Source: Acidobacteriota bacterium (lineage in GTDB: Bacteria; Acidobacteriota; Vicinamibacteria; Vicinamibacterales; UBA2999). Taken from it: a DNA stretch of 54,007 nucleotides. The first letter of the stretch is position 1. Each line of letters begins with the position of its first letter. Shown here piece by piece: positions 4,194 through 40,811 of the stretch. The stretch is taken from contig JANNIB010000313.1 of the NCBI GenBank assembly GCA_031404695.1, positions 1-54,007 on the forward strand. Reading direction: 5' to 3'. A program made the position numbers and the translations under genes. The notes below the pieces were generated by a model that worked only from the letters and a program-made list of their open reading frames with translations, was not told the origin of the DNA and searched no databases.

Positions 4194-4445
4194 ATGCTGG
4201 TCTTCACGCGCAGACGCGACGAAGCGATCGTCATCGGCGATGGCATCGAGGTGCGCGTGCTGCGCACCGGCAAAGATGCCGTGCGGATTGGCGTGACCGC
4301 GCCGGCCGATGTGCTGGTGCACCGCCGCGAGGTCTACGACCTGGTGCGCGCCGCCAACCAGACGGCCGCCCAGGCGGTGCTGCCGCCGATGGCGCACCTG
4401 GCCGGACGGCTGCGTCTGCAGCCGCCGCTCGAGCGCGTGGAGTAG
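4194..4445 (+). CDS. csrA: carbon storage regulator CsrA (flagellar-type, FliW-partnered)
   Basis: MLVFTRRRDEAIVIGDGIEVRVLRTGKDAVRIGVTAPADVLVHRREVY is a canonical CsrA sequence. Confidence 0.95.
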   Translation: MLVFTRRRDEAIVIGDGIEVRVLRTGKDAVRIGVTAPADVLVHRREVYDLVRAANQTAAQAVLPPMAHLAGRLRLQPPLERVE

Positions 4446-7754: not shown

Positions 7755-7772
7755 TTGCGAAATGTCTGCCAA
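7755..7772 (-). promoter_or_regulatory. sigma-54 (RpoN)-type promoter upstream of fliD-fliS
   Basis: The minus strand reads TTGGCAGACATTTCGCAA, i.e. TGGCAG-N5-TCGCA with the exact GG/GC spacing of TGGCAC-N5-TTGCA. It lies between the flagellin terminator hairpin and the fliD start. Confidence 0.5.
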
Positions 7773-7856: not shown

Positions 7857-8654
7857 TTAGCGCAGCAGCGCCAGCACCGACGAGCTCTGCTGGTTGGCCT
7901 GGGCGAGGGCGGCGATACCGCTCTGCGTCAGGATGTTGTAGCGCGCCAGGTTGGCCGACTCTTCCGCCACGTTGGCGTCACGAATGCGGCTCTCGGCGGC
8001 CTTGGTGTTGACCGACTGGTACTGCGCCAGGCCGATGGCGTACTGCAGGCGGTTCTGGAGCGAACCGACGCTGCCGACGACCGTGCCGACCGTCGCCACC
8101 GCGCTGCTGATGGCCGTGACCGCCGTGGCCGCGCCGGCGGCGGTGGCGACGCTGAGACTGGCGATCCCGAGCGTGGTCGTGTCGGCCGCGCCGACCGTGC
8201 CACCCACCGTGCCGCTGCCGCCGCCGCTCACGAACACCGAGAAGCCCTGCGCCGTGCCGAGGCCGGCCACCGAGACTTCACGGGCGATTTCCGCGACCAC
8301 GTCCGTGAACTCGTTGTTCAGGGTGGTGCGGTTGCCGGCGAAGCCGGCCGACGCCGACTGCGACGCCAGCGTCGCGAGACGGTCGAGGAGCGTGCTCACG
8401 TTGTCGAGCGCGCCGTTCTTGATCTGGAGCGTCGAGAGTCCGTCGTTGGCGTTGCGGATGCCCTGGTTGAGAACCGCCTGTTCCGACCGATACGCATTGG
8501 CCACCGCGAGGCCGGCCGCGTCGTCGCCAGCCTGGTTGATACGCAGACCACTCGACAGACGGGTCAACGTCCTCTGCAGGCCGATGCTGGTGGTGTTGAG
8601 GTTCGCCTGCGCGTTCTGCGCCGACACGTTGCTGACAACTGAGAATGAAGCCAT
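7857..8654 (-). CDS. fliC: flagellin (short, about 265 aa, no large outer domain)
   Basis: The N-terminus is MASFSVVSNVSAQNAQANLNTTSIGLQRTLTRLSSGLRINQAGDDAAGLAVAN. The C-terminus is ANLARYNILTQSGIAALAQANQQSSSVLALLR. The ATG at 8654 is preceded by GGAGGAG. The track ORF start at 8702 is an upstream extension. Confidence 0.95.
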   Translation of the reverse strand: MASFSVVSNVSAQNAQANLNTTSIGLQRTLTRLSSGLRINQAGDDAAGLAVANAYRSEQAVLNQGIRNANDGLSTLQIKNGALDNVSTLLDRLATLASQSASAGFAGNRTTLNNEFTDVVAEIAREVSVAGLGTAQGFSVFVSGGGSGTVGGTVGAADTTTLGIASLSVATAAGAATAVTAISSAVATVGTVVGSVGSLQNRLQYAIGLAQYQSVNTKAAESRIRDANVAEESANLARYNILTQSGIAALAQANQQSSSVLALLR

Positions 8655-8660
8655 CTGAAA

Positions 8661-8690
8661 TCTCCTCCGTGAGTCCGGGTCGGCGTCCCT
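8661..8690 (-). promoter_or_regulatory. candidate CsrA-binding GGA motifs in the flagellin 5' leader
   Basis: The leader reads ...CCGGC-AGGGAC-GCCG...CTCACGGAGGAGATTTCAG-ATG. One GGA sits in a hexaloop closed by 4 GC pairs (8681-8694). The second, ACGGAGGAG, overlaps the Shine-Dalgarno (8662-8670). Confidence 0.45.
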
Positions 8691-8736
8691 GCCGGCCGGC
8701 ACGCGGTGGCGGTGTGCCTGCCGCGCGTCGGGGAGG

Positions 8737-8763
8737 TAATCGGAGCCCGGTCGCGGAGCTTTA
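8737..8763 (-). promoter_or_regulatory. sigma-28 (FliA)-type promoter of the flagellin gene
   Basis: The minus strand reads TAAA (8763-8760), a 15 nt spacer, then TCCGATTA (8744-8737). It lies about 80 nt upstream of the flagellin ATG. Confidence 0.65.
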
Positions 8764-8781: not shown

Positions 8782-8797
8782 TGGCATGAATCCGGCT
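8782..8797 (+). promoter_or_regulatory. possible sigma-54-type promoter for the first glycosylation operon
   Basis: TGGCAT-GAATC-CGGCT has correct GG/GC spacing, but the -12 element is CGGC rather than TTGC. It lies 26 nt upstream of the ATG at 8823. Confidence 0.3.
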
Positions 8798-8822: not shown

Positions 8823-9434
8823 ATGGCCGATTGCCTGGTCAACGACATACCGGAAACACTGGATTTCCGGCCAGAAACATGGGGTGAGTTGCTCGACCGG
8901 CTCGATCGCCGGCTCGCTGGCGACCGCCGGGTGGTGACGGCCGTGCGATTCGATGGTGTCGACCAGCCGTCATTCCGGCACCCGGCCATCGCCGGGACCA
9001 GCCTTGGTCGGGTGGCCCGGGTCGAGGTGGAAGCGGAAGACGCCGTGGCGCTGCTGCTGGCCGCCGTGGACGCCGCCAGCGACAGCCTGCCGGATCTGGT
9101 GGCTGGTGTGAGCCAGACGGCGGTGGCGCTGCGCAGCGATGCGCCGGATGCCCACGGGCAGCTCGGCTCGCTGGTCACGGCGCTGCAGTCGCTCGTGGCC
9201 CTGACCGTGGCCGCAGGCACCGCGGCCGACATCTCGTTCGGCTCCGACCCGGGCGCCGATGCGGCGGTCACCGGCGCCTGCGCGCGCATCGAAACGGCCC
9301 TCTCGACCGTGGTCGCCGGCCAGACCGACGGCGACCGGCGCGCGGTGGCCGACGCACTCGACCAGCACCTGGCCCCAGCCGTCGCCGGCTGGACCGACGT
9401 ATTGACTCCCATTCGCATGAGGGCCGCAGCATGA
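8823..9434 (+). CDS. hypothetical protein (no recognisable domain), first gene of the glycosylation operon
   Basis: 203 aa ORF with coding-like G/C third positions. It has an ATGA overlap with the next gene and is divergent from the flagellin promoter. Confidence 0.6.
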   Translation: MADCLVNDIPETLDFRPETWGELLDRLDRRLAGDRRVVTAVRFDGVDQPSFRHPAIAGTSLGRVARVEVEAEDAVALLLAAVDAASDSLPDLVAGVSQTAVALRSDAPDAHGQLGSLVTALQSLVALTVAAGTAADISFGSDPGADAAVTGACARIETALSTVVAGQTDGDRRAVADALDQHLAPAVAGWTDVLTPIRMRAAA

Positions 9435-9940
9435 GCGTCTCGTATCAGCATCCCGCTCCGGGCATGAGCACGATCTTCTTCGGCGCCACCGGACTCCATC
9501 TGCGCTACCGCTGCGACACCATCGGTCACCGCATCGTCGTCACCGACGAATCAGGCTCGGTCGTGCGCGTGTTCGGCGGCTTCGGCCGCAAGGCCGGCGC
9601 GCTCGATTCGCCGCTCGACGTGGTGTTCGTGCGGCCGGAGTTTGCCGGCGAACACCTGCCGGTGGATTCGGCCGATGCCGTCTGGGTGGCCGTAGCCGAC
9701 TACGGCAACCGCCGCGTGCAGGTGTTCGACCTCGACGGCAGCGTCGTCGGCGAGTTCGCCATCGACGCGCCGGGCGGCGAGCCGTGGACGCCGACCGGTC
9801 TGTCGTGGCGGTCGCCGGTGCTCGAGATCGAAGGCATCGAAGGCGCACACACCGCCGTGCATCTGAGCGCGGCGCTGCTGGCCGGCGCCGGTCGCACGGC
9901 TTACGGACGCACGGCGCCGGGCAGAGAGGCGCGGCACTGA
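9431..9940 (+). CDS. small NHL-repeat-like protein (two to three blades only)
   Basis: HRIVVTDESGSVVRVFGGFGRKAGALDSPLDVVFV and VWVAVADYGNRRVQVFDLDGSVVGEF match the NHL repeat pattern (aD.gN.RvqvFd..G). Confidence 0.6.
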   Translation: MSVSYQHPAPGMSTIFFGATGLHLRYRCDTIGHRIVVTDESGSVVRVFGGFGRKAGALDSPLDVVFVRPEFAGEHLPVDSADAVWVAVADYGNRRVQVFDLDGSVVGEFAIDAPGGEPWTPTGLSWRSPVLEIEGIEGAHTAVHLSAALLAGAGRTAYGRTAPGREARH

Positions 9941-11106
9941 TGGCGCCGACCACCACGACCGCGGTGCGTTTTGCGCCGCCGGTCATCGGCCGCGGCGAGA
10001 TCGACGAGGTCGTCGCCGCGCTCGAGTCGGGCTGGCTCTCGACCGGACCGCGGGTGCGGCAGTTCGAGGCGGCGTTTGCCGCCTACACCGGCGCGCCGCA
10101 CGCGCTGGCGCTGAACTCGTGCACCGCGGCCCTGCATCTGGCGCTGCTCGCCTTCGAGATCGGGCCGGGCGATGAGGTGGTCACGACGCCGCTCACCTTC
10201 TGCGCGACGGCCAACGTCGCCATCCACGCCGGCGCGACGCCGCGCTTTGCCGACATCGATCCCGACACCTGGAACCTGTCGCCGGCCGCGGCGGCGGCGG
10301 TGGTGACCTCACGCACGCGGGCGGTCGTGCCGGTGCACTTCGGCGGGCGTCCGGTCGACGTGCCGGCTTTCCGCGCACTTGCCGATCGTCATCGCCTGGC
10401 GCTCATCGAAGACGCCGCGCACGCGGTCGAAGCGGTGTCGGGCGGACGCAAGATCGGCGTCACGGCCGACGTCACCTGTTTCAGCTTCTACGCCACCAAG
10501 AACCTGACGACCGGTGAAGGCGGCATGCTCACGACCGCCGCCGACGCCGTCGCCCGCTTCGCCCGTACGGCGTCGCAGCACGGCATCAGCCGCGACGGCT
10601 GGGCGCGCTACAAGGAGATGGGCAGCCCGCACTACGACGTCCTGTTCCCCGGCTTCAAATACAACATGATGGATCTGCAGGCTGCCATCGGCCTGCACCA
10701 GCTCGCTGGTCTTGCCGCGCGTACAGCGCGCCGCGAGGCGGTGTGGCGGATCTATGACGAGGGTCTGGCCGACCTGCCGCTCGGGCGGCCGGCGCCGGTG
10801 CCCGACGGCGACGTCCACGCAAGGCACCTCTACTCGGTGCTGGTCGGTCCGGCCGCGGGCACCACGCGCGACGATCTCATTGCGCACCTCGCGGCGCGCG
10901 GCATCGCGACCAGCGTGCATTTCCGGGCGCTGCACCTGCATCCGTACTACCAGCAGCGGTATGGCTTCACGCGCGGGATGTTCCCCGAGGCCGAACGCGT
11001 CTCCGACCGCATTCTCTCGCTGCCGTTTGGCGGCGGCATGAGCGACGACGAGGCCTGGACGGTCGTCGAGGCGCTACGGCGTGCAATTCCGGGACGGACG
11101 CGCTGA
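9940..11106 (+). CDS. DegT/DnrJ/EryC1-family PLP aminotransferase (PseC/SpsC/LegC-type nucleotide-sugar 4-aminotransferase)
   Basis: RFAPPVIGRGEIDEVVAALESGWLSTGPRVRQFE is family-typical, and FSFYATKNLTTGEGGM contains the PLP lysine. TGATG overlap with the previous gene. The track start at 9784 is an extension. Confidence 0.9.
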   Translation: MAPTTTTAVRFAPPVIGRGEIDEVVAALESGWLSTGPRVRQFEAAFAAYTGAPHALALNSCTAALHLALLAFEIGPGDEVVTTPLTFCATANVAIHAGATPRFADIDPDTWNLSPAAAAAVVTSRTRAVVPVHFGGRPVDVPAFRALADRHRLALIEDAAHAVEAVSGGRKIGVTADVTCFSFYATKNLTTGEGGMLTTAADAVARFARTASQHGISRDGWARYKEMGSPHYDVLFPGFKYNMMDLQAAIGLHQLAGLAARTARREAVWRIYDEGLADLPLGRPAPVPDGDVHARHLYSVLVGPAAGTTRDDLIAHLAARGIATSVHFRALHLHPYYQQRYGFTRGMFPEAERVSDRILSLPFGGGMSDDEAWTVVEALRRAIPGRTR

Positions 11107-12083
11107 TGCCGATTATCCGACACGTGGCGGTCGTCTTTCGCGTTGCGGCAGGCCCGCGCCTCGGCTTTGGCCATCTCGTGCGGTGTCGCGCCATCGCCCG
11201 GGCGCTCGGGGTCGAGCCCTGCGTGTCGATCCGGGGCACGGCGGCGACCCGCCGCGCCGGCCAGCGGCTGGGCCTGCGGGTCGTGACCGGCGGCCGCGGC
11301 GTGCTCGACCGGGAAGATCCACAGGTGCTCGTCGTGGACGACCCGTCGGCGGCGGCGGCCCGTCCCTGGGTGGCGGCGGCCCGACGGCGCGGCGTCGCGG
11401 TGGTCTCGGTTCACGACGCCGGCCTGGCGCCGCTCGACGTCGACCTGGTCGTCGATGGCAGCGTGCGCGCGCCCGGCCCCGCATCGAAGACGCGGCTCTG
11501 CGGTCCGCGCTACGCGGTGCTCGACCCGCGCCTGACCTCACTGGCGGCCGGCCGGCGTCCGGCCGCCGGGCGGGTCTTGGTCGCCGTGGGCGGCGGCGCC
11601 CATGTGTTCTCGCGCGTGCCCGCGGTCGTCGCCGAGCTGGCGCGCCAGGTGCCCGGGGCCGACATCTGCGTGGCGCCCGGCTTCACCACCCGTCGCCGTC
11701 CGGCCCTGTCGTCGGGCCGCTGGCTGGCACCCGGACAACTCGCGGCGGCTCTTGCAGACTCGCAGCTGGCGCTGGTCGCCGGCGGCATCACCGCCTATGA
11801 GGCGTGCGCGCTCGGCGTCCCGGTGGTGGCCGTGTCGGTGGTACCGGCGCAGCAGCCGACCGTGCGTGCGCTGGCCCGTCGCGGCGCCGTGGTGGACGGC
11901 GGGCCGCTCAGCGCGGCCGGCGCCGCACGAAGGGTCGCCGGTCAGCTGGCGCACCTGCTCGCCGCGCCGGCGGCCCGGCGCCGCCTGGCGGTCGCGGGGC
12001 GCCGGCTCGTCGATGGGCGCGGTGCCGCCCGCGTCGCCACCGCCATCCGCGTCCTGGCGCGGCAGGGAGGGGCCCGTGGCTGA
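11106..12083 (+). CDS. PseG/SpsG-like UDP-sugar hydrolase (GT28 C-terminal-like fold)
   Basis: The N-terminal VVFRVAAGPRLGFGHLVRCRAIARALG matches the G-x-GH-x2-R motif of the PseG/SpsG family. The C-terminal LALVAGGITAYEACALGVPVVAV is GT-B-like. Confidence 0.7.
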   Translation: MPIIRHVAVVFRVAAGPRLGFGHLVRCRAIARALGVEPCVSIRGTAATRRAGQRLGLRVVTGGRGVLDREDPQVLVVDDPSAAAARPWVAAARRRGVAVVSVHDAGLAPLDVDLVVDGSVRAPGPASKTRLCGPRYAVLDPRLTSLAAGRRPAAGRVLVAVGGGAHVFSRVPAVVAELARQVPGADICVAPGFTTRRRPALSSGRWLAPGQLAAALADSQLALVAGGITAYEACALGVPVVAVSVVPAQQPTVRALARRGAVVDGGPLSAAGAARRVAGQLAHLLAAPAARRRLAVAGRRLVDGRGAARVATAIRVLARQGGARG

Positions 12084-12774
12084 GACCCGCGCCATCCTGT
12101 TCGATCTCGACGACACGCTCCATCCGCTCACGCGTTTCGTGATGAGCGGCTTTGCCGCCGTCGCCGATGTGGTCGAGGCACAGTGGCGGGTGCCGCGCGC
12201 GACCGTGCTCGCGACGCTCGTCAGCGCGATGGAGTCGGCCCGCGGCCGTGAACTGCAGGTGCTCGCCGAACGCCACGGCCTGCCCGGCGACGTCGTGCCG
12301 CAGCTGGTGGACGTGATCCGCCAGCACCTGCCGGTGCTGCGCCTGCCTGATCTGAGCGCCGGCGTCCTGGTGGCCCTGCGCCCGCACTGGCGCATCGGCG
12401 TCGTCACCAACGGGCGGCCCGACATCCAAGCGCGCAAGGTGCAGGCGCTGGGGCTGCACCGCTTCGTGGACGCGGTCGTCTATGCGTCGGAATGGGGCAG
12501 CGGCGCGGGCAAGCCCGAACCAGCGTCGTTTCACGAGGCCTGCCGCCAGCTCGACGTGCCGGAAGCGCGCACCGTGTTCGTCGGCGACGACCCCGACTGC
12601 GATATCGCCGGCGCCCGCGGCGTCGGCATGAAGACCATCTGGCTGCCTGCCCGTGTCGCACCGCCCACGGCGCGTGCCGCGGAGCTGGCGGATGTGACCG
12701 TGGCGTCGCTGGCCGACGTGCCTGCGGCGGCCACTCGACTGCTCGTGCCCGAATGGAGGGCTCATGTTGCCTGA
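12076..12774 (+). CDS. HAD-superfamily hydrolase/phosphatase
   Basis: Motif I is ILFDLDDTL, motif II is VVTNG, and motif IV is FVGDDPDCDIAGARGVGM. A GTG start follows GGGAGGGG. The start is inferred. Confidence 0.75.
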   Translation: MAETRAILFDLDDTLHPLTRFVMSGFAAVADVVEAQWRVPRATVLATLVSAMESARGRELQVLAERHGLPGDVVPQLVDVIRQHLPVLRLPDLSAGVLVALRPHWRIGVVTNGRPDIQARKVQALGLHRFVDAVVYASEWGSGAGKPEPASFHEACRQLDVPEARTVFVGDDPDCDIAGARGVGMKTIWLPARVAPPTARAAELADVTVASLADVPAAATRLLVPEWRAHVA

Positions 12775-13840
12775 CGCCACCCAGGTGCGCATCGGCGGCC
12801 GCGTGGCCGGTGATGGCGCGCCGTTGTTCGTGATTGCCGAGATCGGCCTGAACCACGACGGCTCGATCGAGCGCGCGCTGGCGCTGGTGGATGCGGCGGC
12901 CGTGGCCGGCGCCTCCGCCGTGAAAGTACAGGCGCTTTTCGCCGACGAGCTGGTCGCGCCGGGTGCACCGGCGCCGATGCACGTCGAGGCCGCGTCGCTG
13001 GCCGACTTCTTTCGGCGCTTCGAACTGGACGAGGCCGGCTACGCCCGGCTGGCGGTGCGGGCCCGCGAGCGCGGCCTGGCCTTCATCGCCACCCCGTTCT
13101 CCGAGCGCGCGGTCGACATGCTGGAGCGCGTGGGCGTGGACGCCTGGAAGATCGCCAGCGGCGACATCACCTTCGAGCGCCTCATCGAGCGCTGCGGCGC
13201 GACTGGGAAGCCGGTCATCATCTCGACCGGCATGGCGTCGCTGCCCGAGGCGCAGCGCGCGCTCTTCTGGGCCGAGCGCGCCGGCGCCGGCGGGGTGGCG
13301 CTGCTGCACTGCGTGTCGGCGTATCCGGTGCCCAAGGGCAGCGAGAACCTGCGCGCCATCGCCACGCTCGGCATGGCCTGCCGGGCTGTCGTCGGCTTCT
13401 CGGATCACGGCGCCGACGGCTTCTCGGTGCCGCTGGCAGTGGCCATGGGCGCCGCCATCTACGAGCGCCACCTCGTGCTGCGGGCCGGCGACGACAGCAT
13501 CGACGCCGAGGTGTCGAGCACGCCGGGCGAACTGGCGGCCCTGGTACGCGCCGCGGCGCGGGCGCAGGCCGCGCTCGGCACCGGCGTCAAGGCCTGTCTT
13601 CCGGCAGAGAAGGGGAACAGTGATCCCAGCCGTCGCGCGCTCTACGCCCGGCGCCGGCTGCCGGCCGGTCACGTGGTCGCGGCCACCGACCTCATCGCCT
13701 TGCGACCGGCCTGCGGACTGGGCGCCGATCGCCAGCGCGAGCTGGTCGGGCAGCGGCTGGGCCGCAACGTCGATGCCGGCGCGCCGTTCCAGCCCTCCGA
13801 CCTGCACGCGCATGACAAGGGGACCGAACATGTCGCTTAA
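12764..13840 (+). CDS. NeuB-family nonulosonic acid synthase (PseI/LegI/SpsE-type) with C-terminal SAF domain
   Basis: PLFVIAEIGLNHDGSIERALALVDAAAVAGASAVKVQ, AWKIASGDITF and HCVSAYP are NeuB-family motifs. A SAF-like tail is present. Confidence 0.9.
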   Translation: MLPDATQVRIGGRVAGDGAPLFVIAEIGLNHDGSIERALALVDAAAVAGASAVKVQALFADELVAPGAPAPMHVEAASLADFFRRFELDEAGYARLAVRARERGLAFIATPFSERAVDMLERVGVDAWKIASGDITFERLIERCGATGKPVIISTGMASLPEAQRALFWAERAGAGGVALLHCVSAYPVPKGSENLRAIATLGMACRAVVGFSDHGADGFSVPLAVAMGAAIYERHLVLRAGDDSIDAEVSSTPGELAALVRAAARAQAALGTGVKACLPAEKGNSDPSRRALYARRRLPAGHVVAATDLIALRPACGLGADRQRELVGQRLGRNVDAGAPFQPSDLHAHDKGTEHVA

Positions 13841-14834
13841 CGTGCTCATCACGGCCGGCTCGCGGCGGGTGCCGCTGGTGCGCGCGTTTCAGCGGGCGGT
13901 GGCCCATCACCGCGGCGGCAGCGTCGTGGTCACCGACGTGAACCCGTTGTCGCCGGCCGTGCACGCCGCCAACCGCGCCTACCGGGTGCCGCTCTCCACC
14001 GCCCCCGACTACATCGACGCCATCCTCGAGATCTGCGTCGGCGAACGGATCGGGCTGGTGGTGCCGACCATCGACGACGAGCTGGTGATCTTCGGCCGTG
14101 CCGCCGGCCGCTTCCTCGAGCATGGCGTGCGGGTGGCAGTGTCGCCGGCGGCGACCTCCGAGCTGTGCGAGGACAAGTACGCGACCTGCCGGTATCTGAA
14201 TGCCCGCGGCATTCCGGCCGCCGACTCGTGGCTGCCATCGGCGCTGCCCGAGACCCCGGCGTTCCCGCTCTTCATCAAGCCGCGACGCGGCCGGGGCAGC
14301 GTCGGCGCCTACCCGGTGCGCACCCGGCGCGAACTCGACTTCTTCGTCGACTACGTGCCTGACGCGGTCGTCCAGGCCTACCTCGATGGCCCCGAGTTCA
14401 CCATCGACCTGCTCTGCGACTTCTCCGGCCAGCCGCTCAGCATCGTGCCGCGCCGCCGCGACGTGATCCGCGCCGGCGTGAGCGACCGCGGCCGCACCGT
14501 GAACGACCCGGCGCTCATCCAGGTGGCGCGCACCTGCGCGGCCACCCTGCAGTTTGCCGGCGCCGTGAACATCCAGTGCCGCCTCGTGGACGGACGGCCG
14601 GTGGTGTTCGAGATCAACCCGCGCTTCTCCGGCGGCATTCCGCTGACCATTCACGCCGGCGCCGATTTCCCGCGCATGCTGGTCGATCTCACCGCCGGCG
14701 TGCGCGTGGCGCCGTCGATCGGCCGCTTCCGAGACAACCTCTGGATGGCCAGCTACGAGACCTCGGTCTTCCTCGACGGCACCCGCATCACCCTCCCCGA
14801 ATTCGCCCCGACCTGTGTAGAGGACGTCGCATGA
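13830..14834 (+). CDS. ATP-grasp family ligase
   Basis: LFIKPRRGRGSVGAY...VQAYLDGPEFTIDLL...NIQCRLVDGRPVVFEINPRFSGG is an ATP-grasp signature. Confidence 0.8.
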   Translation: MSLNVLITAGSRRVPLVRAFQRAVAHHRGGSVVVTDVNPLSPAVHAANRAYRVPLSTAPDYIDAILEICVGERIGLVVPTIDDELVIFGRAAGRFLEHGVRVAVSPAATSELCEDKYATCRYLNARGIPAADSWLPSALPETPAFPLFIKPRRGRGSVGAYPVRTRRELDFFVDYVPDAVVQAYLDGPEFTIDLLCDFSGQPLSIVPRRRDVIRAGVSDRGRTVNDPALIQVARTCAATLQFAGAVNIQCRLVDGRPVVFEINPRFSGGIPLTIHAGADFPRMLVDLTAGVRVAPSIGRFRDNLWMASYETSVFLDGTRITLPEFAPTCVEDVA

Positions 14835-15550
14835 GTGCCCGCGCTGCCATCGTCGTTCAGGCCCGCATGGGCTCCACCCGTCTGCCCGGCAAGTCGCTGT
14901 CGCCGATCGCCGGCCGGACGCTGCTGGCGCGCGTGGTGGAGCGTCTGCTCCATCAGGGCGAGCTGCCGGTCGTGCTCGCGACCACCACCCTGCTCGAAGA
15001 CGACCTGCTCTGTGAGGAAGCCGAGCGGCTCGGCGTCGCGGTGCTGCGTGGCTCGGCTGACGACGTGCTGGGCCGCTACGCCTTCGCGGCGTCGCTGCTC
15101 GACGTGCCGGCCATCATCCGGGCGACCGCGGACAACCCGGCCATCGACCTCGCCGCCGCGGTGCGCACGCTCGACATCCTGCAACGCTCGGGGGCCGACT
15201 ACGTCGTCGACTACGGCCTGCCGGTGGGCGCCACAGTCGAGGCGATGAGCGTGGCCGCGCTCGTGCGCGCGGCGGCGCTGGCGACCGACGCCTACGACCG
15301 CGAACACGTGACGCCCTTCATCCGCCGCGACGGCCGTTCGCGGGCGGTGGACGCGCTGGCGCCGACCGACCTGCGCCGGCCCGACCTGCGCTTCACGGTC
15401 GATACGGCCGACGACCTCGACTACATGCGGCGCGTGTATCTCGAGGCCGGGCCGTCCGACCAGCCGTGGCCGCTGGCCGCGCTCATCGAGGCCGCGGACC
15501 GCGTGCGCGTGCGGACCGAGCTCGAACAGACAGGAGCGGATGCACGGTGA
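14831..15550 (+). CDS. SpsF/PseF-type cytidylyltransferase (CMP-nonulosonic acid synthetase candidate)
   Basis: AAIVVQARMGSTRLPGKSL is the SpsF-like cytidylyltransferase N-terminal motif. ATGA overlap with the ATP-grasp gene. Confidence 0.8.
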   Translation: MSARAAIVVQARMGSTRLPGKSLSPIAGRTLLARVVERLLHQGELPVVLATTTLLEDDLLCEEAERLGVAVLRGSADDVLGRYAFAASLLDVPAIIRATADNPAIDLAAAVRTLDILQRSGADYVVDYGLPVGATVEAMSVAALVRAAALATDAYDREHVTPFIRRDGRSRAVDALAPTDLRRPDLRFTVDTADDLDYMRRVYLEAGPSDQPWPLAALIEAADRVRVRTELEQTGADAR

Positions 15551-16377
15551 CCACCCCACGACGCGTCTCCGACGCCGCGTTCCTCTTCAGCGTGCCGCTG
15601 ATGGTGGCGCTGGTCGTGGGCGCCCAGTCGCTCGACGGCGGCACCATCAGCACGCTGCTGCAGCCGGCGGCGGCGCTGGTCGTCTTCGGCGGCACCGCGG
15701 CGGCGGTGCTCTTCAGCTTCCCGCTGGCGCTGCTGGCCCGCACCGGCCGGGCGCTGGCGGCGGCCTTCGGGCGCCGTCCGGAATCCGACACGGCGCTGCT
15801 GACGCGGATGGGCGAATACGCCACCCGCGCCCGGACCCGCGGCACCTTGTCGCTCGAGAACGAGCTGTCGCGCAGCGACGATCCGTTCCTCATCCGCGCC
15901 CTGTCGCTGGTCGTCGACGGAGTGCCGGCCGCCGACGTGCGCCATACGCTCAAGACCTTCAGCCAGGTGCGTGAGGAAGCCGACGCCGAGTGCGCGCTCG
16001 TGCTCGAGGCCGCCGGCGGCTACGCGCCGACGCTCGGCATCCTCGGCGCCGTGCTCGGCCTGATCCAGGCGATGGAGCACCTGACCTCGCCGGCCAGCGT
16101 GGGGCCCGGGATCGCCGTCGCGTTCGTGGCCACCGTCTACGGCGTCGGCGCCGCCAATCTCGTATTCCTGCCGCTGGCGACGCGGCTGCGCAGCCTCGGC
16201 CGGCAGGCGGCACTCAGCCGCGAAGTGGTCATCGAAGGCGCGGTGGCGATTCAGCAGGGCATCCATCCGACGCTGGTGGACGGCCACCTGCGCAGTCTGC
16301 TCACGGCCTGGCACGGCGCGCCGCGCTACGCCGTGCCCACGGAGGGCGGGACGCGGGCGCGTCTCGTGAAGTCATGA
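15547..16377 (+). CDS. motA: flagellar stator protein MotA/PomA-type (copy 1)
   Basis: Multi-TM protein. IAVAFVATVYGVGAANLVFLPLATRL is the MotA/TolQ/ExbB channel motif. It is paired with an OmpA-domain MotB. GTGA overlap with the cytidylyltransferase stop. Confidence 0.85.
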   Translation: MTTPRRVSDAAFLFSVPLMVALVVGAQSLDGGTISTLLQPAAALVVFGGTAAAVLFSFPLALLARTGRALAAAFGRRPESDTALLTRMGEYATRARTRGTLSLENELSRSDDPFLIRALSLVVDGVPAADVRHTLKTFSQVREEADAECALVLEAAGGYAPTLGILGAVLGLIQAMEHLTSPASVGPGIAVAFVATVYGVGAANLVFLPLATRLRSLGRQAALSREVVIEGAVAIQQGIHPTLVDGHLRSLLTAWHGAPRYAVPTEGGTRARLVKS

Positions 16378-17063
16378 ACATCCGGCTCTCAGCCACGCAG
16401 GTGTCGCGCGATCGGTGGCTCATCTCCTACGCCGACTTCATGACGCTGCTGGTGGCGTTCTTCGCGACGCTGTATGCCGCGTCGCTGACCGAGACCGCGG
16501 TGACGACCGCACCGGCTCCGACCGAGACCGCCGCGCCGGCTACCGCGCCGCCGGAGGCGCCACCGCCCCCTGATCCGGCCGTGGCCCTGCGGGCCGAGGT
16601 CGAACGTGCGCTGGCGCCGGAACTCGCCGCCGGTTACCTGCAGCTCATCGAAGATCCGCGCGGGCTCGTCATCGAAGTGCCCGAAGCCGGCGCCTTCGAC
16701 GTCGGGCAGGCGGACCTGGCGCCGGAGGCGGCCCAGATGCTGACCCGTGTGGCGACGATGCTGACGACGCTGCCCAACGCGGTGCGCATCGAAGGCCACT
16801 CCGACACCACCCCGATCCGCACCTCGCAGTACGCCTCGAACTGGGAGCTCTCGACCGCGCGGGCGACCTGCGTGGTCGAGTTCCTGGTGACGACCGCCGG
16901 CCTGGCGCCGTCGCGGCTCTCGGCCGCCGGCTACGCGGAGTTCAAGCCGCGCGCCGCCAACGACACGCCAGCCGGGCGGGCCCGCAATCGGCGCGTCGAT
17001 CTGGTGCTGCTGAACGAGCGGACGACGCGGGCCGAGGAACCCGCAGGGAGCGCCCGTCCATGA
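16374..17063 (+). CDS. motB: flagellar stator protein MotB-type (copy 1), OmpA-like C-terminal domain
   Basis: WLISYADFMTLLVAFF has the conserved TM Asp. VRIEGHSDTTPI...NWELSTARA...NRRVDLVLL is an OmpA/MotB peptidoglycan-binding domain. Confidence 0.85.
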   Translation: MNIRLSATQVSRDRWLISYADFMTLLVAFFATLYAASLTETAVTTAPAPTETAAPATAPPEAPPPPDPAVALRAEVERALAPELAAGYLQLIEDPRGLVIEVPEAGAFDVGQADLAPEAAQMLTRVATMLTTLPNAVRIEGHSDTTPIRTSQYASNWELSTARATCVVEFLVTTAGLAPSRLSAAGYAEFKPRAANDTPAGRARNRRVDLVLLNERTTRAEEPAGSARP

Positions 17064-18208
17064 GATGCCCCTTTTCGCCCGACGAGCTCGAGCGTCTGCT
17101 CGATCGGCCGGTGCGTCATCTGCTCGGCCCCGCCGACCGCAAACGCTACGCCGGACAGCGTCTGCTCATCACCGGGGCCGGCGGCTCGGTGGGCTCCGAG
17201 CTCTCGCGTCAGCTGGCCGACTGCGGGCCCGATGTGCTGACGCTGGTCGATCACTCGGAGCTGCATCTGTTCGAGATCATGAAGGAGCTGGCGGATCGCG
17301 CGCCGGGGCTGGTGGTCGAGCCGGTGCTGGCCGACATCTGCCAGCAGCCGCTCGTCCGCCGCGCTGTCGCGCAGGCCGCCCCTGACGTCGTCTTCCATGC
17401 CGCCGCCTACAAACACGTGTCGATGATGGAACGCGACGTCTGCGCGGCCGTCGGCGCCAACGTCGTCGGCACCGCCAACGTCGTGGCGGCGAGCCGCGAG
17501 GCCGGGGCGCGCTTCGTGCTCATCTCGTCCGACAAGGCCGCCGCGCCGCGCAGCGTCATGGGAGCGACCAAGCGGCTGGCCGAACTGGTCACGCTTGCCG
17601 CCACCCCTGGCGACGCGCGGCCGATTGTCGTGCGCTTCGGCAACATCCTCGGCAGCAGCGGCAGCCTGCTGACGATCTTCCGCGATCGCATCCGCCGCGG
17701 CCTGCCGCTGGCGCTGACCGACCCGCTGGCCACCCGCTACGTGATGACGGCAGGGGAAGCGGTCGCCCTCGTGATGAAGGCGGACCTGCTGGCCCGGCGG
17801 CCCGAGACCTACTGGCTCGACATGGGCGAGCCGGTCGGCATCGGCGATCTCGCAGGCCGCCTGCTGGCGATTGAGGCCGAGGCGGGATTTGCGCGCGTGC
17901 CGATCGAGGTCGTTGGCCTCGGCCCCGGCGAGAAGCGCCGCGAGGAGCTGACGACCCAGGGGCTGCGGATGTGTCCGACGGCGCACCGCCGCATCTGGGT
18001 GGCGCGCCAGAAAGCCAACGACGGCGCGGCGGTGACGCGCGCCGTCGAACGGCTGCGGCGGCTGGTGGAGCAGGGCGAGGCCGAGGCCACGCTCGACCTG
18101 CTGGTCGCGGCGGTGCCCGACTTCGCGGCCAGCGACGAGGCGTGGGCGAGCGCCCGCCGCCGGGGTGCCCGAGGCCTGCGGCGCCCCGTGCTGCCTTGCA
18201 GCGCGTAA
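17060..18208 (+). CDS. CapD/WbpM/PglF-type nucleotide-sugar 4,6-dehydratase (soluble form)
   Basis: LLITGAGGSVGSEL is a Rossmann motif. FHAAAYKHVSMME contains YxxxK. ATGA overlap with motB. Confidence 0.85.
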   Translation: MRCPFSPDELERLLDRPVRHLLGPADRKRYAGQRLLITGAGGSVGSELSRQLADCGPDVLTLVDHSELHLFEIMKELADRAPGLVVEPVLADICQQPLVRRAVAQAAPDVVFHAAAYKHVSMMERDVCAAVGANVVGTANVVAASREAGARFVLISSDKAAAPRSVMGATKRLAELVTLAATPGDARPIVVRFGNILGSSGSLLTIFRDRIRRGLPLALTDPLATRYVMTAGEAVALVMKADLLARRPETYWLDMGEPVGIGDLAGRLLAIEAEAGFARVPIEVVGLGPGEKRREELTTQGLRMCPTAHRRIWVARQKANDGAAVTRAVERLRRLVEQGEAEATLDLLVAAVPDFAASDEAWASARRRGARGLRRPVLPCSA

Positions 18209-18216
18209 CGGAGGCC

Positions 18217-19344
18217 ATGGTGCGCATTCTCCATCTCCTCTCGTTCGTCAGCGGTGCGGCCGGCAACACCGTGACCGAGCTGGCCGTCGGTCAGAAGCGC
18301 GCCAGCCATCAGGTGACGGTCGTCACGTCGAAGACGCCGGTCGGCGGACTGATGAACGTCGCGCCGCTGATGCGCAAGCTCACCGACTCTGGCGTCACAG
18401 TGCATGAGATCGACTCGCTGGCCGCCCGGCAGATGGGGCCCAACGCCGCGGTCGTGCAATGCATCCACGATCAACTGGGCTCTGCCGCGGCCTTCGACGT
18501 GCTGCACACGCATGGCACCGTGCCGAGCGTCATCGCGATTGCGGCGGCCAAGCGGGTGAGTACACGGGTGCCGATCCTGCAGACCTCCCACGAATGGACC
18601 GTATCGCGGCCCGGCACCGGCCGTCAGGCCTACGACCTGGAAGTGATGAACCTCGTGGACCGTGCGGTGGTGCCGACGTGGGCGGTGGCGGAGCACTTCG
18701 TGGCGCGCGGCGTGGTGCCCCGCCAGTTGGCGGTCGTGCCCTACGGGGTGCTGCCCGATCCACCGCCCGCCTCGGGTGATCATCTGGAACTCGAGATGCG
18801 CGCCTGGCGCCAGGCCGGCGGCCTGGTGCTGTGCTACGTGAGCGCCACCACGACCGCGCACGACCAGCGGCTGCTGCTGCACGCGCTGCCGTTCGTGGAT
18901 CCCCGGCTCCACATCCTGTGCGTCTTCTTCGGCGGATCCGAAGCGCGCGAGACCGCGCCATGGCCGCACGAAGGGCCGGTCACCGTGCGGGTCGCGGCGC
19001 CCGATGCGGCCGTGCGGCAGTACTCCCACGAAGCGGACTTCCTGGTGCTGCCGTCGGGCGACGGCGACCAGCCGCTGGCCGTGCTCGAGGCGTTCTGCGA
19101 TCAGGTGCCGGTGGTGGCCAGCCGCGTGCCGGAGCTGGTCGAGTTCATCGACGACGGCCAGACCGGCTGGCTGTTCGACCCGACCGACACACGCGCTCTC
19201 GCCGAGACGCTGAACCTCGCCCGGACCACGGCGCCGAATGCGCTGCGGGCGCTCTGCCAGCGGGCGCGCGTGCGTTACCAGACCGAGTTCACCATCGACC
19301 GGATGGTGAGCGGCTACATGCGCGAGTACACGCGGCTGTCGTGA
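18217..19344 (+). CDS. glycosyltransferase, GT-B fold (GT4/GT1-like)
   Basis: The N-terminus is RILHLLSFVSGAAGN. The C-terminus LVLPSGDGDQPLAVLEAFCDQVPVVASRVPELVEFIDDGQTGWL has the E-x7-E region. A GGAGG Shine-Dalgarno is present. Confidence 0.8.
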   Translation: MVRILHLLSFVSGAAGNTVTELAVGQKRASHQVTVVTSKTPVGGLMNVAPLMRKLTDSGVTVHEIDSLAARQMGPNAAVVQCIHDQLGSAAAFDVLHTHGTVPSVIAIAAAKRVSTRVPILQTSHEWTVSRPGTGRQAYDLEVMNLVDRAVVPTWAVAEHFVARGVVPRQLAVVPYGVLPDPPPASGDHLELEMRAWRQAGGLVLCYVSATTTAHDQRLLLHALPFVDPRLHILCVFFGGSEARETAPWPHEGPVTVRVAAPDAAVRQYSHEADFLVLPSGDGDQPLAVLEAFCDQVPVVASRVPELVEFIDDGQTGWLFDPTDTRALAETLNLARTTAPNALRALCQRARVRYQTEFTIDRMVSGYMREYTRLS

Positions 19345-19486: not shown

Positions 19487-21145
19487 ATGGTTTCCCCGAC
19501 CGTCCGCCTCGAATCCACGCCCACCGGCAGCGATGCCGGACACCAGCGGCGTCCTGCTCCGGCCGCAAGCCCACTGGCCGTCGGCCTCTTCAACGACAGC
19601 GCCGATGACGCGCAGGTCGTGAGCCTGGCCGTCTCGCACGCCCACCGCCGCATGCTGCAGCGGGCCGGGGCCCACGTGCGCCACGCCTACTTCCGCGGCG
19701 ACTGGCAGGAACTCGGCACCGGCACCCTCGACGAGGCGGTGGCTGCGGCCCTCGCCTCGCAGGAACTGCGACGCGTCTTCGCCGACATCGACGTGGTCGT
19801 CGTGGCCGGCGATACCTTGCGGGCGCAGCGTCACCGCCACCTGCTGGCCATTCTCGGCGCCGCGCAGCACCTCGACCTGCCGACCTACCTCGTGAACGCG
19901 ACCGTCGGCCCGCTCGACGAAGGCCACGACATCCTGCGCGGGCTCGCCGATTGCACCGTGCGCGACGCCGCCAGTGCCCGCGTCCTCAAGGCCCTCGGCG
20001 TGGCCCATCGTCGCGTCGCCGACTCGGTGTTCGGCGCCCCGTTTGGCGTCACCGCCCGGCGCGACTTCTCCGATCATCTGGTGGTCACCGATTGCCATCC
20101 GTCGCGCCGGGTGGAGTTCACGGCGGACCTGGCGGTCGTGCGCGGCGCCTGGCCAGGCATGGTGGCCGACTATCCGCTCGATGCGCCCGGAGGTTCGCTT
20201 GACTGGACCTCGGCGGTGGCCGACCTCGGCACCGCCTCGGCCGTCCTGACCGGCGGACGCGACGGCGCCAGCCTGGCGCTGCGGGCCGGGGTGCCATTTG
20301 TCGCGCTCGGCCTCGAGGGCGAGGCCATCGACTTCATCGAGACGCTCGACGGCTACCCGGCGGCGGCCGCCGATCCGGCGCGCCCGCTCGACGCGCGGCT
20401 CGCCTCGGCCATCGAGGCGCGGGCGTGGTTCGTCGAGACCGCGGCCCGCTGCCAGACCCGCGGCCCCGCCGAGGCCTTCTCGCGCCTGCGGCCGAGCATG
20501 GTGCCGAGCGGCCGCGACGATGCCTGGACCGGCGCCATCGAGGGGGTCATGGACGTCGTGTGCGGGCTGACCGCGGCCGGCGGCAGCGTGCTGCATGCGG
20601 GTGCCGGTCAGGGGCAGCTGGTCGAAGCGCTTGCCCGGAGCGGCTTGCGTGCCTGGGGCACCGACGTCGCCCGCCGGCTCGATCGTCCCGACCGCAACCG
20701 CTACTCCAGGGCGACGCCGATGGCGCTGCCATTTGCCGATCACGTCTTCTCGACGGTGGTCGTCTCGGCCGACTGGCTCGAACACCTCGAAGCCGATGAC
20801 CTCGACGCCGCGGTCGGCGAGCTCGCGCGCGTCGGCCGCGACACGCTGGTCGTCGAAGTGTCGGGACGTCCGGTGCGCGCCGAGCGCGCCTTCGAAGAGC
20901 GCCTGACTGACGACTGGTGGCGCCGCCGCCTGTCGATGCTCGGACTGCGGCTGCACGATCTCGCCGACACGCTCGTCACCCATGGCGCCGGCCCCACTGG
21001 CGGCACCTTGCTCGTCATGTCGGCGCAGGCGCAGCTCTGCCCGAGCTGCCGGCGCGTTCACGCGCCGGCCGACGCCATCGAGCCGGTGCATCCCGGGGTG
21101 CTGATGGCCGCCGCCGACGCGCGCGCCACGGCCCTGCGCCGGTGA
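19487..21145 (+). CDS. fusion protein: polysaccharide pyruvyl-transferase-like N-terminal domain plus class I SAM methyltransferase domain
   Basis: The N-terminal part has VGLFNDSADD...DVVVVAGDTL...YLVNATVGPL...VRDAASARVLKALGV, which is PS-pyruvyl-transferase-like. The C-terminal part has VLHAGAGQGQLVEALARSGLRAWGTD...FADHVFSTVVVSADWLEHL, a methyltransferase motif I/post-I pattern. The start is uncertain; the track ORF begins at 19364. Confidence 0.6.
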   Translation: MVSPTVRLESTPTGSDAGHQRRPAPAASPLAVGLFNDSADDAQVVSLAVSHAHRRMLQRAGAHVRHAYFRGDWQELGTGTLDEAVAAALASQELRRVFADIDVVVVAGDTLRAQRHRHLLAILGAAQHLDLPTYLVNATVGPLDEGHDILRGLADCTVRDAASARVLKALGVAHRRVADSVFGAPFGVTARRDFSDHLVVTDCHPSRRVEFTADLAVVRGAWPGMVADYPLDAPGGSLDWTSAVADLGTASAVLTGGRDGASLALRAGVPFVALGLEGEAIDFIETLDGYPAAAADPARPLDARLASAIEARAWFVETAARCQTRGPAEAFSRLRPSMVPSGRDDAWTGAIEGVMDVVCGLTAAGGSVLHAGAGQGQLVEALARSGLRAWGTDVARRLDRPDRNRYSRATPMALPFADHVFSTVVVSADWLEHLEADDLDAAVGELARVGRDTLVVEVSGRPVRAERAFEERLTDDWWRRRLSMLGLRLHDLADTLVTHGAGPTGGTLLVMSAQAQLCPSCRRVHAPADAIEPVHPGVLMAAADARATALRR

Positions 21146-21150
21146 ACGCC

Positions 21151-23061
21151 ATGGCCACCCGCGAACCCCTCTTCGACCTGCCGCGCCTGCGGCCGCGCTC
21201 CGCCGCGGCCCGCCAGCCCCTGCGCCTCCTCCACGTCACGGTCGGCCACAGCCCCCCGGGGCCGTCACTGGCCGAGGCGATCCACGCCGCCAGCCGTGGC
21301 GCTATCCGTGTCGACACCGCCCTCGGTCTCGGTCGTGCGCTCGACCATCTGCGTGCTCATCCCGCCGCTCTGGTGCTGCTGCAGGCGGAAGACGCCGACC
21401 TGGCCCGGGTCGCGCTGGCCGAAATCAAGCGCACCCACCCGGCGCTCCCGGTGGTGCTGCTCACCGATGCCGACGACGCGGCCGCCGTGGCGGCGGTGCG
21501 CGCCGGCGCCGAAGACTGCCTGTCACGCGCGGCGGCTACCGGGCCCCGGGTCGTGCGGGCGCTGCTGTGCGCCCTCGAGCGCACCAGCCACGCGGCGACG
21601 CTGCGCACGCAGGCGGTGACCGATCCGCTCACCGGGCTGCCGAACCGGCACGCGCTGCAGAAGGCGATCGATCATGCCATCGCGATGGCCCGCCGCAAGA
21701 GCCGCGCGCTGGCCGTGCTGTTTGTCGACCTCGACGGCTTCAAGGACATCAACGACGCCTGCGGCCACGAGCAGGGCGATCGCGTGCTTCAGGAGATCGC
21801 GCGCCGCTTTGCCGGCCGCACCCGCAGCATGGACACGGTGGCCCGCATCGGCGGCGACGAGTTCGTGGTGGTGATGGAAGATCTCGACGACAGCCGGTTC
21901 GCGTCCACGCTCGCCGGCAAGCTGCTCACGGCGGCCGCCGCGCCGATCGTGGTCGAGGGCCGCGTGACCGAGCTCACCGCCAGCGTCGGCATCAGCGTGT
22001 TCCCGGGGGATGGCGACGACGCCGCGGCACTCATCCGTCATGCCGACACCGCGATGTACGCGGCCAAGGCGGCGGGGAAGAACCAATACCGCTACTACCG
22101 CGCGCAGATGAACGAGCACTCGCGCGCCCGCACCGTGCTCGATGCGGCGCTCGCACGCGCGTTCGAGGGCGGCGAGTTCGAGCTGCACTACCAGCCCGTG
22201 TGGCAGTCTTCGGCGCGGCGCATCTCGTCGTGCGAAGCGCTGCTGCGCTGGCGCCGGCCCGGGCACGGCCTGATGCTGCCGGGGGCCTTCCTTGCGGCGG
22301 CTGACGAATCCGGCCTCGCGGGACGCCTCGCCCAGTGGGTGCTGACACGCGGTGGCGCCACCGCCCGGCGGATGCGCGAGGCCGGGTTCGACGTGCCGGT
22401 GTCGATCAACCTGTCGCGCCGGCAGCTGGTCGAAGGCGACATCGTGTCGTGCCTGGGGCGCGTGCTCGCAGACGGCACCGACGCCGCCGCGCTGCGCGTC
22501 GAGATCGCCGAGTCGGTGCTCGTCGCCGACGACCCGCGGGTGCACCAGGTGCTGGCCGACCTGGCCGGGCTCGGCATCGGCGTCATCGTCGACGACTTCG
22601 GCAGCGGCGTGTCGTCGCTGCGGGCGCTGCGCCGGGTACGCCCGCACAGCATCAAGATCGACGGCGCGCTGGCGCGTGAGCTGCCCGACGGGCACGACGC
22701 GGCGGCGCTGGTCAGCGCGGTCGTCTCGCTCGGCAAGACGCTCGGCGTGCACGTGGTGGCCGAAGGGGTCGAGACCGAGGCGCAGTCACGCCGTCTGCGG
22801 ACGCTCGGCTGCGACGACCTGCAGGGCTACTATTTCGGGCACGCGCTGCCCGATGACGAGTGGCTCGCGTATCTGCGCTGGGCGTGCACGGCGGTGGTAG
22901 GAACCGACGGGCCGGCCCCGGCGCTCGTGGTGCGGCGTCCTGGCCGTAGCCGCCGGGCCGCTGCGACCCCGTTCGCTGACGGCGCCGGCATGCCGGGCAT
23001 TCCCGGCGCGCCGCGCCTGACCAGGACCGGGCAGGTCGTGTTCGGCCGCTTCACGGATTGA
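21151..23061 (+). CDS. receiver-like domain plus GGDEF plus EAL protein (c-di-GMP turnover)
   Basis: RSMDTVARIGGDEFVV has the RxxD I-site and an intact GGDEF. The EAL side shows EALLRW, NLS, EIAES, DDFGSG, KIDGAL, EGVET and QGYYF. The N-terminal receiver-like fold has LVLLQAED where the acceptor Asp is expected. Confidence 0.9.
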   Translation: MATREPLFDLPRLRPRSAAARQPLRLLHVTVGHSPPGPSLAEAIHAASRGAIRVDTALGLGRALDHLRAHPAALVLLQAEDADLARVALAEIKRTHPALPVVLLTDADDAAAVAAVRAGAEDCLSRAAATGPRVVRALLCALERTSHAATLRTQAVTDPLTGLPNRHALQKAIDHAIAMARRKSRALAVLFVDLDGFKDINDACGHEQGDRVLQEIARRFAGRTRSMDTVARIGGDEFVVVMEDLDDSRFASTLAGKLLTAAAAPIVVEGRVTELTASVGISVFPGDGDDAAALIRHADTAMYAAKAAGKNQYRYYRAQMNEHSRARTVLDAALARAFEGGEFELHYQPVWQSSARRISSCEALLRWRRPGHGLMLPGAFLAAADESGLAGRLAQWVLTRGGATARRMREAGFDVPVSINLSRRQLVEGDIVSCLGRVLADGTDAAALRVEIAESVLVADDPRVHQVLADLAGLGIGVIVDDFGSGVSSLRALRRVRPHSIKIDGALARELPDGHDAAALVSAVVSLGKTLGVHVVAEGVETEAQSRRLRTLGCDDLQGYYFGHALPDDEWLAYLRWACTAVVGTDGPAPALVVRRPGRSRRAAATPFADGAGMPGIPGAPRLTRTGQVVFGRFTD

Positions 23062-39866: not shown

Positions 39867-39893
39867 TCAAGAAATCCTCCGGCACGCCGATTG
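39867..39893 (+). promoter_or_regulatory. sigma-28-type promoter upstream of motA2-motB2
   Basis: TCAA (39867-39870), a 15 nt spacer, then GCCGATTG (39886-39893). The -10 octamer is the same as at flgM and at 41701. Confidence 0.5.
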
Positions 39894-40808: not shown

Positions 40809-40811
40809 GCG

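Follow-up and report, generated by a model that had tools for sequence, protein, structure and literature searches.

A flagellar stator gene pair within a run of nonulosonic-acid genes divergent from flagellin is conserved in Vicinamibacterales

The gene run and its stator pair

Analysis of a 54,007-nucleotide (nt) stretch of DNA from a bacterium of the Acidobacteriota (Vicinamibacterales, UBA2999; contig JANNIB010000313.1 of assembly GCA_031404695.1; hereafter the window) revealed a pair of flagellar stator genes, designated motA1 and motB1, lying within a run of genes for nonulosonic-acid biosynthesis. The run occupies positions 8823–19344 (about 10.5 kb) and consists of 12 genes, all on the + strand, which overlap their neighbours by 1–11 nt except at a single gap of 8 nt (18209–18216) ahead of the last gene. 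The initial annotation had counted 12 open reading frames with no gap larger than 8 nt over this interval, and the count was confirmed, although two starts were corrected, to a GTG at 12076 and an ATG at 13830. Genes were mapped from a codon-position score together with Pfam matches; filtering of open reading frames by the G+C content of third codon positions alone left the frames unsettled at 9.4–17.9 kb. The base composition of the window is 72% G+C, and the minus-strand open reading frames over the region, whose coding scores were much lower, are high-GC shadow frames.

The run is divergent from the flagellin gene fliC (7857–8654, minus strand; Flagellin_N and Flagellin_C domains), the ATG of which lies at 8654 (MASFSVVSN...). 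It begins with two genes without a Pfam match, the lineage-restricted unkA (8823–9434) and unkB (9431–9940), which encodes a conserved hypothetical protein kept in relatives. These are followed by genes for a DegT/PseC-like sugar aminotransferase (9940–11106; DegT_DnrJ_EryC1, 416 bits), a PseG-like UDP-sugar hydrolase recognised by a weak match (11106–12083), a HAD-family hydrolase (12076–12774; Hydrolase and HAD_2 domains), a NeuB-family nonulosonic acid synthase (12764–13840; NeuB, 208 bits, and SAF), an ATP-grasp enzyme assigned to sugar modification (13830–14834; ATPgrasp_Ter, PylC-like_N and ATP-grasp_3 domains) and a CTP_transf_3 cytidylyltransferase for CMP-sugar activation (14831–15550; PF02348, 87 bits). 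The stator genes motA1 (15547–16377) and motB1 (16374–17063) come next. A gene for a CapD/Polysacc_synt_2-type sugar-nucleotide 4,6-dehydratase, resembling PseB of the first pathway step (17060–18208; PF02719, 261 bits), follows, and a GT4 glycosyltransferase gene (18217–19344; Glyco_transf_4 and Glycos_transf_1 domains) closes the tightly packed run.

The stator genes are joined to the sugar genes on both sides and to each other by overlaps of 4 nt, exactly as initially annotated. The TGA stop of the cytidylyltransferase gene (15548–15550) overlaps the GTG start of motA1 at 15547 (GTGA, 15547–15550), the stop of motA1 overlaps the ATG of motB1 (ATGA, 16374–16377), and the stop of motB1 overlaps the ATG of the dehydratase gene (ATGA, 17060–17063). 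These three overlaps are by themselves unremarkable, because 13 of the 41 same-strand junctions of the window are overlaps of the same length. The proposal that stator production is stoichiometrically locked to the sugar supply, perhaps as a checkpoint, is not borne out, the 4-nt overlap being a default junction and no sign of a checkpoint being seen. A stator dedicated to a glycosylated state of the flagellum, which the initial annotation also raised, is a conjecture.

Comparison with profile and structure databases identified the pair as flagellar stators. In Pfam, MotA1 matched MotA_ExbB (PF01618; 85.4 bits) and fell just under the cutoff for MotA_N (PF20560; 27.0 bits against 27.3). The best NCBIfam model was PRK09109 "flagellar motor protein" (226 bits), followed by MotA (181 bits), MotP (147 bits) and PomA (135 bits), and TolQ scored 21.8 bits. 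All ten matches of MotA1 among all PDB sequences were MotA or PomA (best 9lu9, 1e-48; also 6ysl and 8bri), and no ExbB or TolQ structure was found there at E ≤ 0.001. Residues 17–254 of MotA1 were covered in the full-length alignment to solved MotA, in which the motifs ARxxGxLxLE and YAPTLG align and the proline of the fourth transmembrane segment is present. E104, G99, P161 and P209 were invariant among 14 homologues, with R96 as the consensus at its position; we take the conserved residues to correspond to R90, E98, P173 and P222 of E. coli MotA. MotB1 contains MotB_plug (38.4 bits) and an OmpA-like peptidoglycan-binding domain (OmpA, 68.4 bits), and its transmembrane aspartate, in the segment WLISYAD21FMTLL, aligned to the MotB transmembrane segment; D21 is presumably equivalent to D32 of E. 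coli. The best NCBIfam model for MotB1 was PRK09038 MotD (184 bits), and its leading PDB matches were MotB, MotS and PomB.

Both proteins missed the equivalog cutoffs of their best stator models (MotA1, 226.4 bits against 237 for PRK09109; MotB1, 183.9 against 283 for MotD). The profiles thus place MotA1 and MotB1 in the flagellar stator family, and assign them by best match to the MotC/MotD–PomAB subtype (MotC/PomA or TGI4 type for MotA1, MotD/PomB type for MotB1). The complete motA/motB pair of the initial annotation is therefore a genuine stator by its MotC/MotD-type profiles and its matches to MotA, PomA, MotB and PomB structures. A non-flagellar motor of the ExbB/TolQ kind, with which clustering would have spoken against that annotation, was rejected on the same NCBIfam profiles and PDB matches, since flagellar models scored best. 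The ratio of nonsynonymous to synonymous substitution (dN/dS) was 0.10–0.25 for motA1 and 0.17–0.49 for motB1, with similar values for the flanking sugar genes; because all values for the pair lie between 0.10 and 0.49, motA1 and motB1 are under purifying selection. A second stator pair, motA2–motB2, lies at 39936–41684 (+ strand) and is of the E. coli MotA/MotB (TGI5) type by Pfam and NCBIfam (TIGR03818 MotA, 357 bits, above cutoff; PRK09041 MotB, 236 bits).

The NeuB, CTP_transf_3, DegT and Polysacc_synt_2 genes, with an MptE-like gene (113 bits), are clustered beside the flagellin gene, as in a flagellin-glycosylation island. None of the enzymes reached an NCBIfam equivalog cutoff of the canonical pseudaminic acid pathway: the scores were 105 bits against 408 for PseB, 340 against 423 for PseC, 60.7 against 153.55 for PseG (TIGR03590) and 223 against 340 for PseI, and the synthase also missed the NeuB_NnaB cutoff (259 against 400). 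Because the PseB, PseC, PseG and PseI cutoffs were missed, the pathway is labelled here only as nonulosonic acid, with no named type.

Conservation of the coupled order and the flbD series

A scan of GTDB species representatives yielded 80 loci (numbered L); these were searched by tblastn with the window proteins, and their junctions were analysed. The directly coupled state, here Type I, was found in L006–L010, L012–L018, L020, L034, L045 and L073. Its gene order and 4-nt overlaps are thus shared by about 16 independent species-representative genomes of the Vicinamibacterales/Acidobacteriota, with MotA identities of 46–92%, and for this reason the arrangement is neither a chance association nor a recent accident. 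The closest MotA1 homologues (up to 94% identity) likewise came from metagenome-assembled genomes of the Vicinamibacterales/Acidobacteriota; contigs with homologues of 87%, 75% and 61% identity had identical gene order and 4-nt overlaps, and the coupled order was also present on contigs reached via P0005, P0035 and P0052. The synteny search that the initial annotation had suggested therefore found the arrangement in relatives, and a recent accidental insertion, which absence from every relative would have indicated, was rejected because of conservation in many species. Outside the phylum the picture was different: no sugar genes were found near the MotA1 homologues of Desulfobacterota, Myxococcota, Nitrospirota, Thiobacillus and other groups.

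Some loci departed from the common form. In L006, which with 92% MotA identity is the nearest of the species representatives, the dehydratase gene is internally deleted, and only its start and last ~50 codons are left between motB1 and the GT4 gene (11511–11684). P0048 was called as one protein of 463 residues with CTP_transf_3 and MotA_ExbB domains, which is probably an assembly or gene-calling artefact of the tight junctions. An apparent fusion of MotB with the dehydratase in L001 (2993–4824) was rejected, since its translation is interrupted by frame breaks at several points, a pattern typical of assembly indels. Two metagenome-assembled genomes labelled "Ilumatobacteraceae" (L015) and "Bifidobacterium sp." (L045) contain the acidobacterial locus with complete gene order; these contigs are probably mis-binned or mislabelled.

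Sister loci revealed a further gene at the junction ahead of the stator pair. In L019, L023, L026, L032, L033, L041 and L065, the 190–290 nt upstream of motA1 that appear as a spacer are flbD (PF06289, SwrD family, 68–91 bits), lying between the CTP-transferase gene and motA1, with a start that overlaps the transferase stop. In three loci of deeper Acidobacteriota (L043, L046 and L052), flbD is preceded by a true noncoding spacer with a common sigma-28-like motif, TAAGG-N15-TGACGATATA. Units of flbD-motA-motB without sugar genes occur in L028, L061, L031 and several other phyla; that of L061 (Terriglobales) adjoins fliC, and L028 has the order fliC / unkA-flbD-motA1-motB1. The sugar genes are variable also elsewhere: L023, L026, L032 and L041 have no dehydratase gene downstream, and L028 lacks the sugar genes altogether. 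FlbD/SwrD is a known stator-associated factor, according to a 2018 study as cited in PMC9195833. Whereas flbD immediately precedes the gene of the MotA1 orthologue in sister and outgroup loci, no flbD was found at the motA1 position or elsewhere within the 54 kb of the window, nor at the junction in any directly coupled locus.

In a neighbour-joining tree of MotA, all Type I loci formed one derived clade; its sister clade comprised the loci that retain flbD, and L028 fell within this group. L028 was rejected as the ancestral state because the tree nests it within the flbD-retaining, sugar-bearing clade, and for the same reason secondary loss of the sugar genes in L028 is more likely. The distribution points to an flbD-motA-motB module near fliC, in Acidobacteriota and other phyla, as the constant element, and to the sugar genes as the variable part. 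The initial annotation had the stator pair spliced into the middle of a sugar operon; this reverses the probable relation, in which the module is constant and the fused state would have arisen when flbD and a sigma-28-like motif disappeared from the locus. The series would begin with flbD-motA-motB under its own sigma-28-type promoter beside fliC. Sugar genes would then have gathered upstream and downstream of the module, and the clade of the window would finally have been left with neither flbD nor the sigma-28 motif there. In this series the CTP-transferase stop overlaps the motA1 start because of that last loss.

Promoter motifs and expression of the stator genes

Scans for promoter motifs distinguished the stator run from fliC and motA2. 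The sigma-28-like pattern of the lineage, of which 0.09 matches are expected per shuffled window, had only one match in the window, the motif of fliC (TAAAG-N15-TCCGATTA; 8737–8763, minus strand), and 13 Type I loci carry the pattern at the same place ahead of fliC. The motA2 gene has a variant, TCAAG-N15-GCCGATTG, upstream of it (39867–39893, + strand), which recurs before motA2 in L002/L010 and L019. On the + strand, neither the window nor any of 15 Type I loci has a match ahead of motA1. A search for the sigma-28 (FliA) late-operon motif of the TAAA-N15-GCCGATAA type likewise found none before motA1 or unkA, in contrast to fliC and, as the variant, motA2. Seven loci with flbD carry the sigma-28-like pattern ahead of that gene, inside the cytidylyltransferase coding sequence in L023, L026 and L033, in intergenic DNA in L028 and in the spacer in L043, L046 and L052.

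Ahead of the run, 41 nt upstream of unkA, lies a sigma-54-like –24/–12 element, TGGCATGAATCCGGCT (TGGCATGAATCCGGC; 8782–8797, + strand), with the –24 GG and –12 GC at the fixed spacing of sigma-54 operons at the level of the motif. Its position is conserved in relatives: of 13 loci, 12 have TGGCA-N7-(C/G)GC at 39–43 nt ahead of unkA, where it stands out as conserved sequence in a spacer that varies elsewhere. Terminator-like sites in the window did not exceed chance expectation, and none lay at 14.8–18.2 kb; a sigma-70 scan of the window gave 0 sites where 0.3 were expected, which is uninformative at 72% G+C. Neither in the window nor in 15 related loci are motA1B1 set apart from the adjoining genes by a terminator-, sigma-70- or sigma-28-like site.

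Co-transcription of this stator pair with the sugar genes is plausible, since a sigma-54-like element stands before the operon and sigma-28-like motifs stand at fliC and motA2. It is plausible also because none of the three findings named in the initial annotation as speaking against its reading was made: the proteins did not group with ExbB/TolQ motors, the order was not absent from relatives, and the motif scans, with the sigma-70 scan uninformative at this base composition, gave no internal promoter or terminator that uncouples the pair. We favour, with a probability of about 0.65, the reading that motA1B1 are internal cistrons of a 12-gene operon divergent from fliC and otherwise devoted to CMP-nonulosonic-acid flagellin glycosylation, a state that arose when flbD and its promoter disappeared and that is probably maintained by sigma-54 read-through. 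The stator pair would be expressed by read-through from the promoter of the operon, for which the conserved sigma-54-type element at 8782 is the probable candidate, and fliC and motA2B2 would stay on their sigma-28-type motifs. The function so served would be co-expression of two activities required by a working filament and motor, with no special checkpoint.

Several observations weigh against this reading. The sigma-54-like match is not significant in the window alone (1.1 matches to the stricter pattern are expected by chance), its support lying in its conserved position, and no gene for RpoN, an enhancer-binding protein or a Sigma54_activat domain was seen among the genes of the window. 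Promoters of another type may lie within coding sequence of 72% G+C, and we infer co-transcription and promoter use at the level of motifs. The tree was a quick neighbour-joining tree of one protein in which L073 was placed a little away from the others, and some of the proposed events, such as the loss of sugar genes in L028, depend on it for their direction. The comparison genomes are all metagenome-assembled, with errors in L001 and L011 and doubtful taxon labels in L015 and L045.

The alternative that survives best, though we regard it as unlikely, is that motA1B1 lie beside the sugar genes but are independently transcribed, from an internal sigma-70-like or degenerate sigma-28 site in the ATP-grasp or CTP-transferase coding sequence. 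The sigma-28-like motifs of L023, L026 and L033 bear on this directly: because they sit inside the CTP-transferase coding sequence, internal promoters would be a habit of the locus. At 72% G+C, scans for consensus sequences have little power, and motA1 has a Shine-Dalgarno sequence of its own (AGGAG). However, the + strand pattern was absent before motA1 from the window and 15 Type I loci by a scan that found the fliC promoter in 13, a relaxed scan gave only 9/12 matches, at 12921 and 17011, and the 4-nt overlaps are conserved on both sides of the pair.

Also to be weighed is a neutral by-product, in which flbD and the promoter were deleted, read-through sufficed, and the order persists by inertia with no adaptive link between glycosylation and stator. 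We consider this improbable. The frequency of 4-nt overlaps in the window agrees with it, as do the variability of the sugar genes (the PseB-like gene deleted in L006 and absent downstream in four other loci, the block absent in L028) and the second stator pair, which could buffer changes. Nevertheless, the fused state and its overlaps have been kept across the clade while MotA diverged to 46–56% identity, and this explanation departs from the favoured operon in adaptive value alone, sharing its mechanism. Recruitment of MotA1B1 to a non-flagellar, glycan-linked task, such as energising export or a surface process in the manner of non-flagellar MotAB-like motors, would suit their position among sugar-pathway genes, the loss of flbD (a stator accessory gene of relatives) and the score of MotA1 just below the PRK09109 cutoff, but is highly improbable given that all profile and structure matches are flagellar stators, with TolQ at 21.8 bits, that the plug, transmembrane aspartate, OmpA-like domain and conserved MotA residues are kept, and that sister-lineage orthologues lie in classic flbD-motAB units beside fliC.

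Flagellar and glycan surroundings, and relation to known systems

The left part of the window contains further flagellar genes, namely flgM, flgK, a flgL-like gene, fliW and csrA, with fliS, fliD and flagellin on the minus strand. The 5′ leader of fliC (8655–8735, minus strand) contains a strictly conserved GCCGGCAGGGACGCC with GGA in a predicted hairpin loop, together with a GGAGGAG Shine-Dalgarno sequence; its overall fold was statistically not distinctive (z = −1.41). fliW (3746–4189) and csrA (4194–4445) lie in the same window, and because of these genes and the conserved leader sequences, the locus suggests FliW/CsrA control of flagellin translation. In the fliC–fliD intergenic region, a good sigma-54-like element, TGGCAGACATTTCGCA, lies at 7756–7771 (minus strand), ~64 nt upstream of fliD. 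A sigma-28-like TAAAG-N15-GCCGATTG at 41682–41708 (+ strand) overlaps the end of motB2, ~115 nt upstream of a PAS/HisKA kinase gene (41822–43360).

A GGDEF-EAL gene (21142–23061) lies inside the glycosylation region, and in the same place in L001, L002, L006, L008 and L011; genes for a GGDEF protein (43462–44472), a response-regulator-HD-GYP protein (44481–45560) and a PAS-GGDEF-EAL protein (47901–49529) adjoin motA2B2. The richness of the locus in such cyclic di-GMP genes hints at control of motility by this second messenger. Downstream of the run, two MptE-like (Maf-type) proteins are encoded at 25582–28230 and 36467–37675, and further glycan genes of the window include those for a radical-SAM enzyme, WbqC, an asparagine synthase, several methyltransferases and at least six glycosyltransferases; taken together, these genes suggest that the glycan on the flagellin is elaborate. 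The first gene of the run, unkA, had 152 homologues in a homologue search, all unnamed and restricted to the lineage. Its AlphaFold2 model (pLDDT 82) shows a helical bundle and a small beta domain, and comparison of the model with PDB folds gave nothing at E ≤ 0.001, only generic helical bundles. Because L028 retains unkA beside flbD-motAB while lacking the sugar genes, unkA may be a motility-associated factor.

The arrangement resembles several known systems in part. In E. coli, motAB-cheAW is a classical sigma-28 late operon with motAB. In operons of this kind stators are co-transcribed with late motility genes, and motA2 of the window, with its sigma-28-like motif, compares with them; motA1B1 differ in having no such motif and in having sugar-nucleotide enzymes, not chemotaxis genes, as partners. 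Dual-stator motors (MotAB and MotCD in Pseudomonas; MotAB and MotPS in Bacillus) share with the window the presence of two pairs in one organism. Pseudomonas motCD sits among che and flagellar genes, whereas the MotCD-type pair of the window lies inside a sugar-biosynthesis operon without a sigma-28-like motif. The dual stators of P. aeruginosa have been described (PMC11633141), and both TGI4 (PomAB-like) and TGI5 (E. coli-like) flagellar stators have been reported in Acidobacteria (PMC12505986). A flagellin-glycosylation gene is co-transcribed with a flagellar gene in the RpoN-dependent flaB-jhp0106 operon of H. pylori (PMC5368276); there the glycosylation gene is paired with a flagellin gene and the dependence has been demonstrated by experiment, whereas in the window a stator pair takes that place and the promoter is predicted.

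Flagellar glycosylation islands beside flagellin genes are well known, and that of Clostridium beijerinckii NCIMB 8052, which is reported to encode MotA and MotB (PMC13317340), is a close parallel. In the window, too, nonulosonic-acid genes and genes for Maf (MptE-like) transferases adjoin the flagellin gene. That report treats motAB in passing and describes no operon-level fusion or start/stop overlap, and the island is that of a Firmicute and contains transposase genes, in contrast to an interleaving conserved across an acidobacterial clade. The initial statement that the arrangement is unlike any described system thus holds in part: stator genes in a glycosylation island have a precedent in C. 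beijerinckii, whereas for a stator pair interleaved between nonulosonic-acid genes, or for flagellar loci of the Vicinamibacterales, no description was found in the open-access literature. The layout is conserved and apparently undescribed; it combines known modules, constitutes no new type of machine and leaves existing models standing.

A bolder reading is that, in this clade, control of the MotCD-type stator has shifted from sigma-28 to sigma-54 and its genes have been physically tied to flagellin-glycan synthesis, whereas the MotAB-type stator remains sigma-28 dependent. The two stators would then serve different assembly stages or different conditions, and the choice between them would go with the glycosylation state. 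We hold this to be doubtful; were it true, filament load or surface properties, by way of glycosylation, would be tied to stator choice.

Flagellar regulation is known almost wholly from Proteobacteria, Firmicutes and spirochaetes, whereas the Acidobacteriota are abundant in soil and their motility is essentially unstudied. The loci compared here form a series, from a stator module with its own promoter, through overlap with flbD kept, to full fusion with flbD and promoter lost, in which a neighbouring metabolic operon would have captured a stator module. The favoured reading predicts two stator sets in one cell under different sigma factors, and co-transcription, if true, would mean operon-level coupling of motor-force generation and filament glycosylation.

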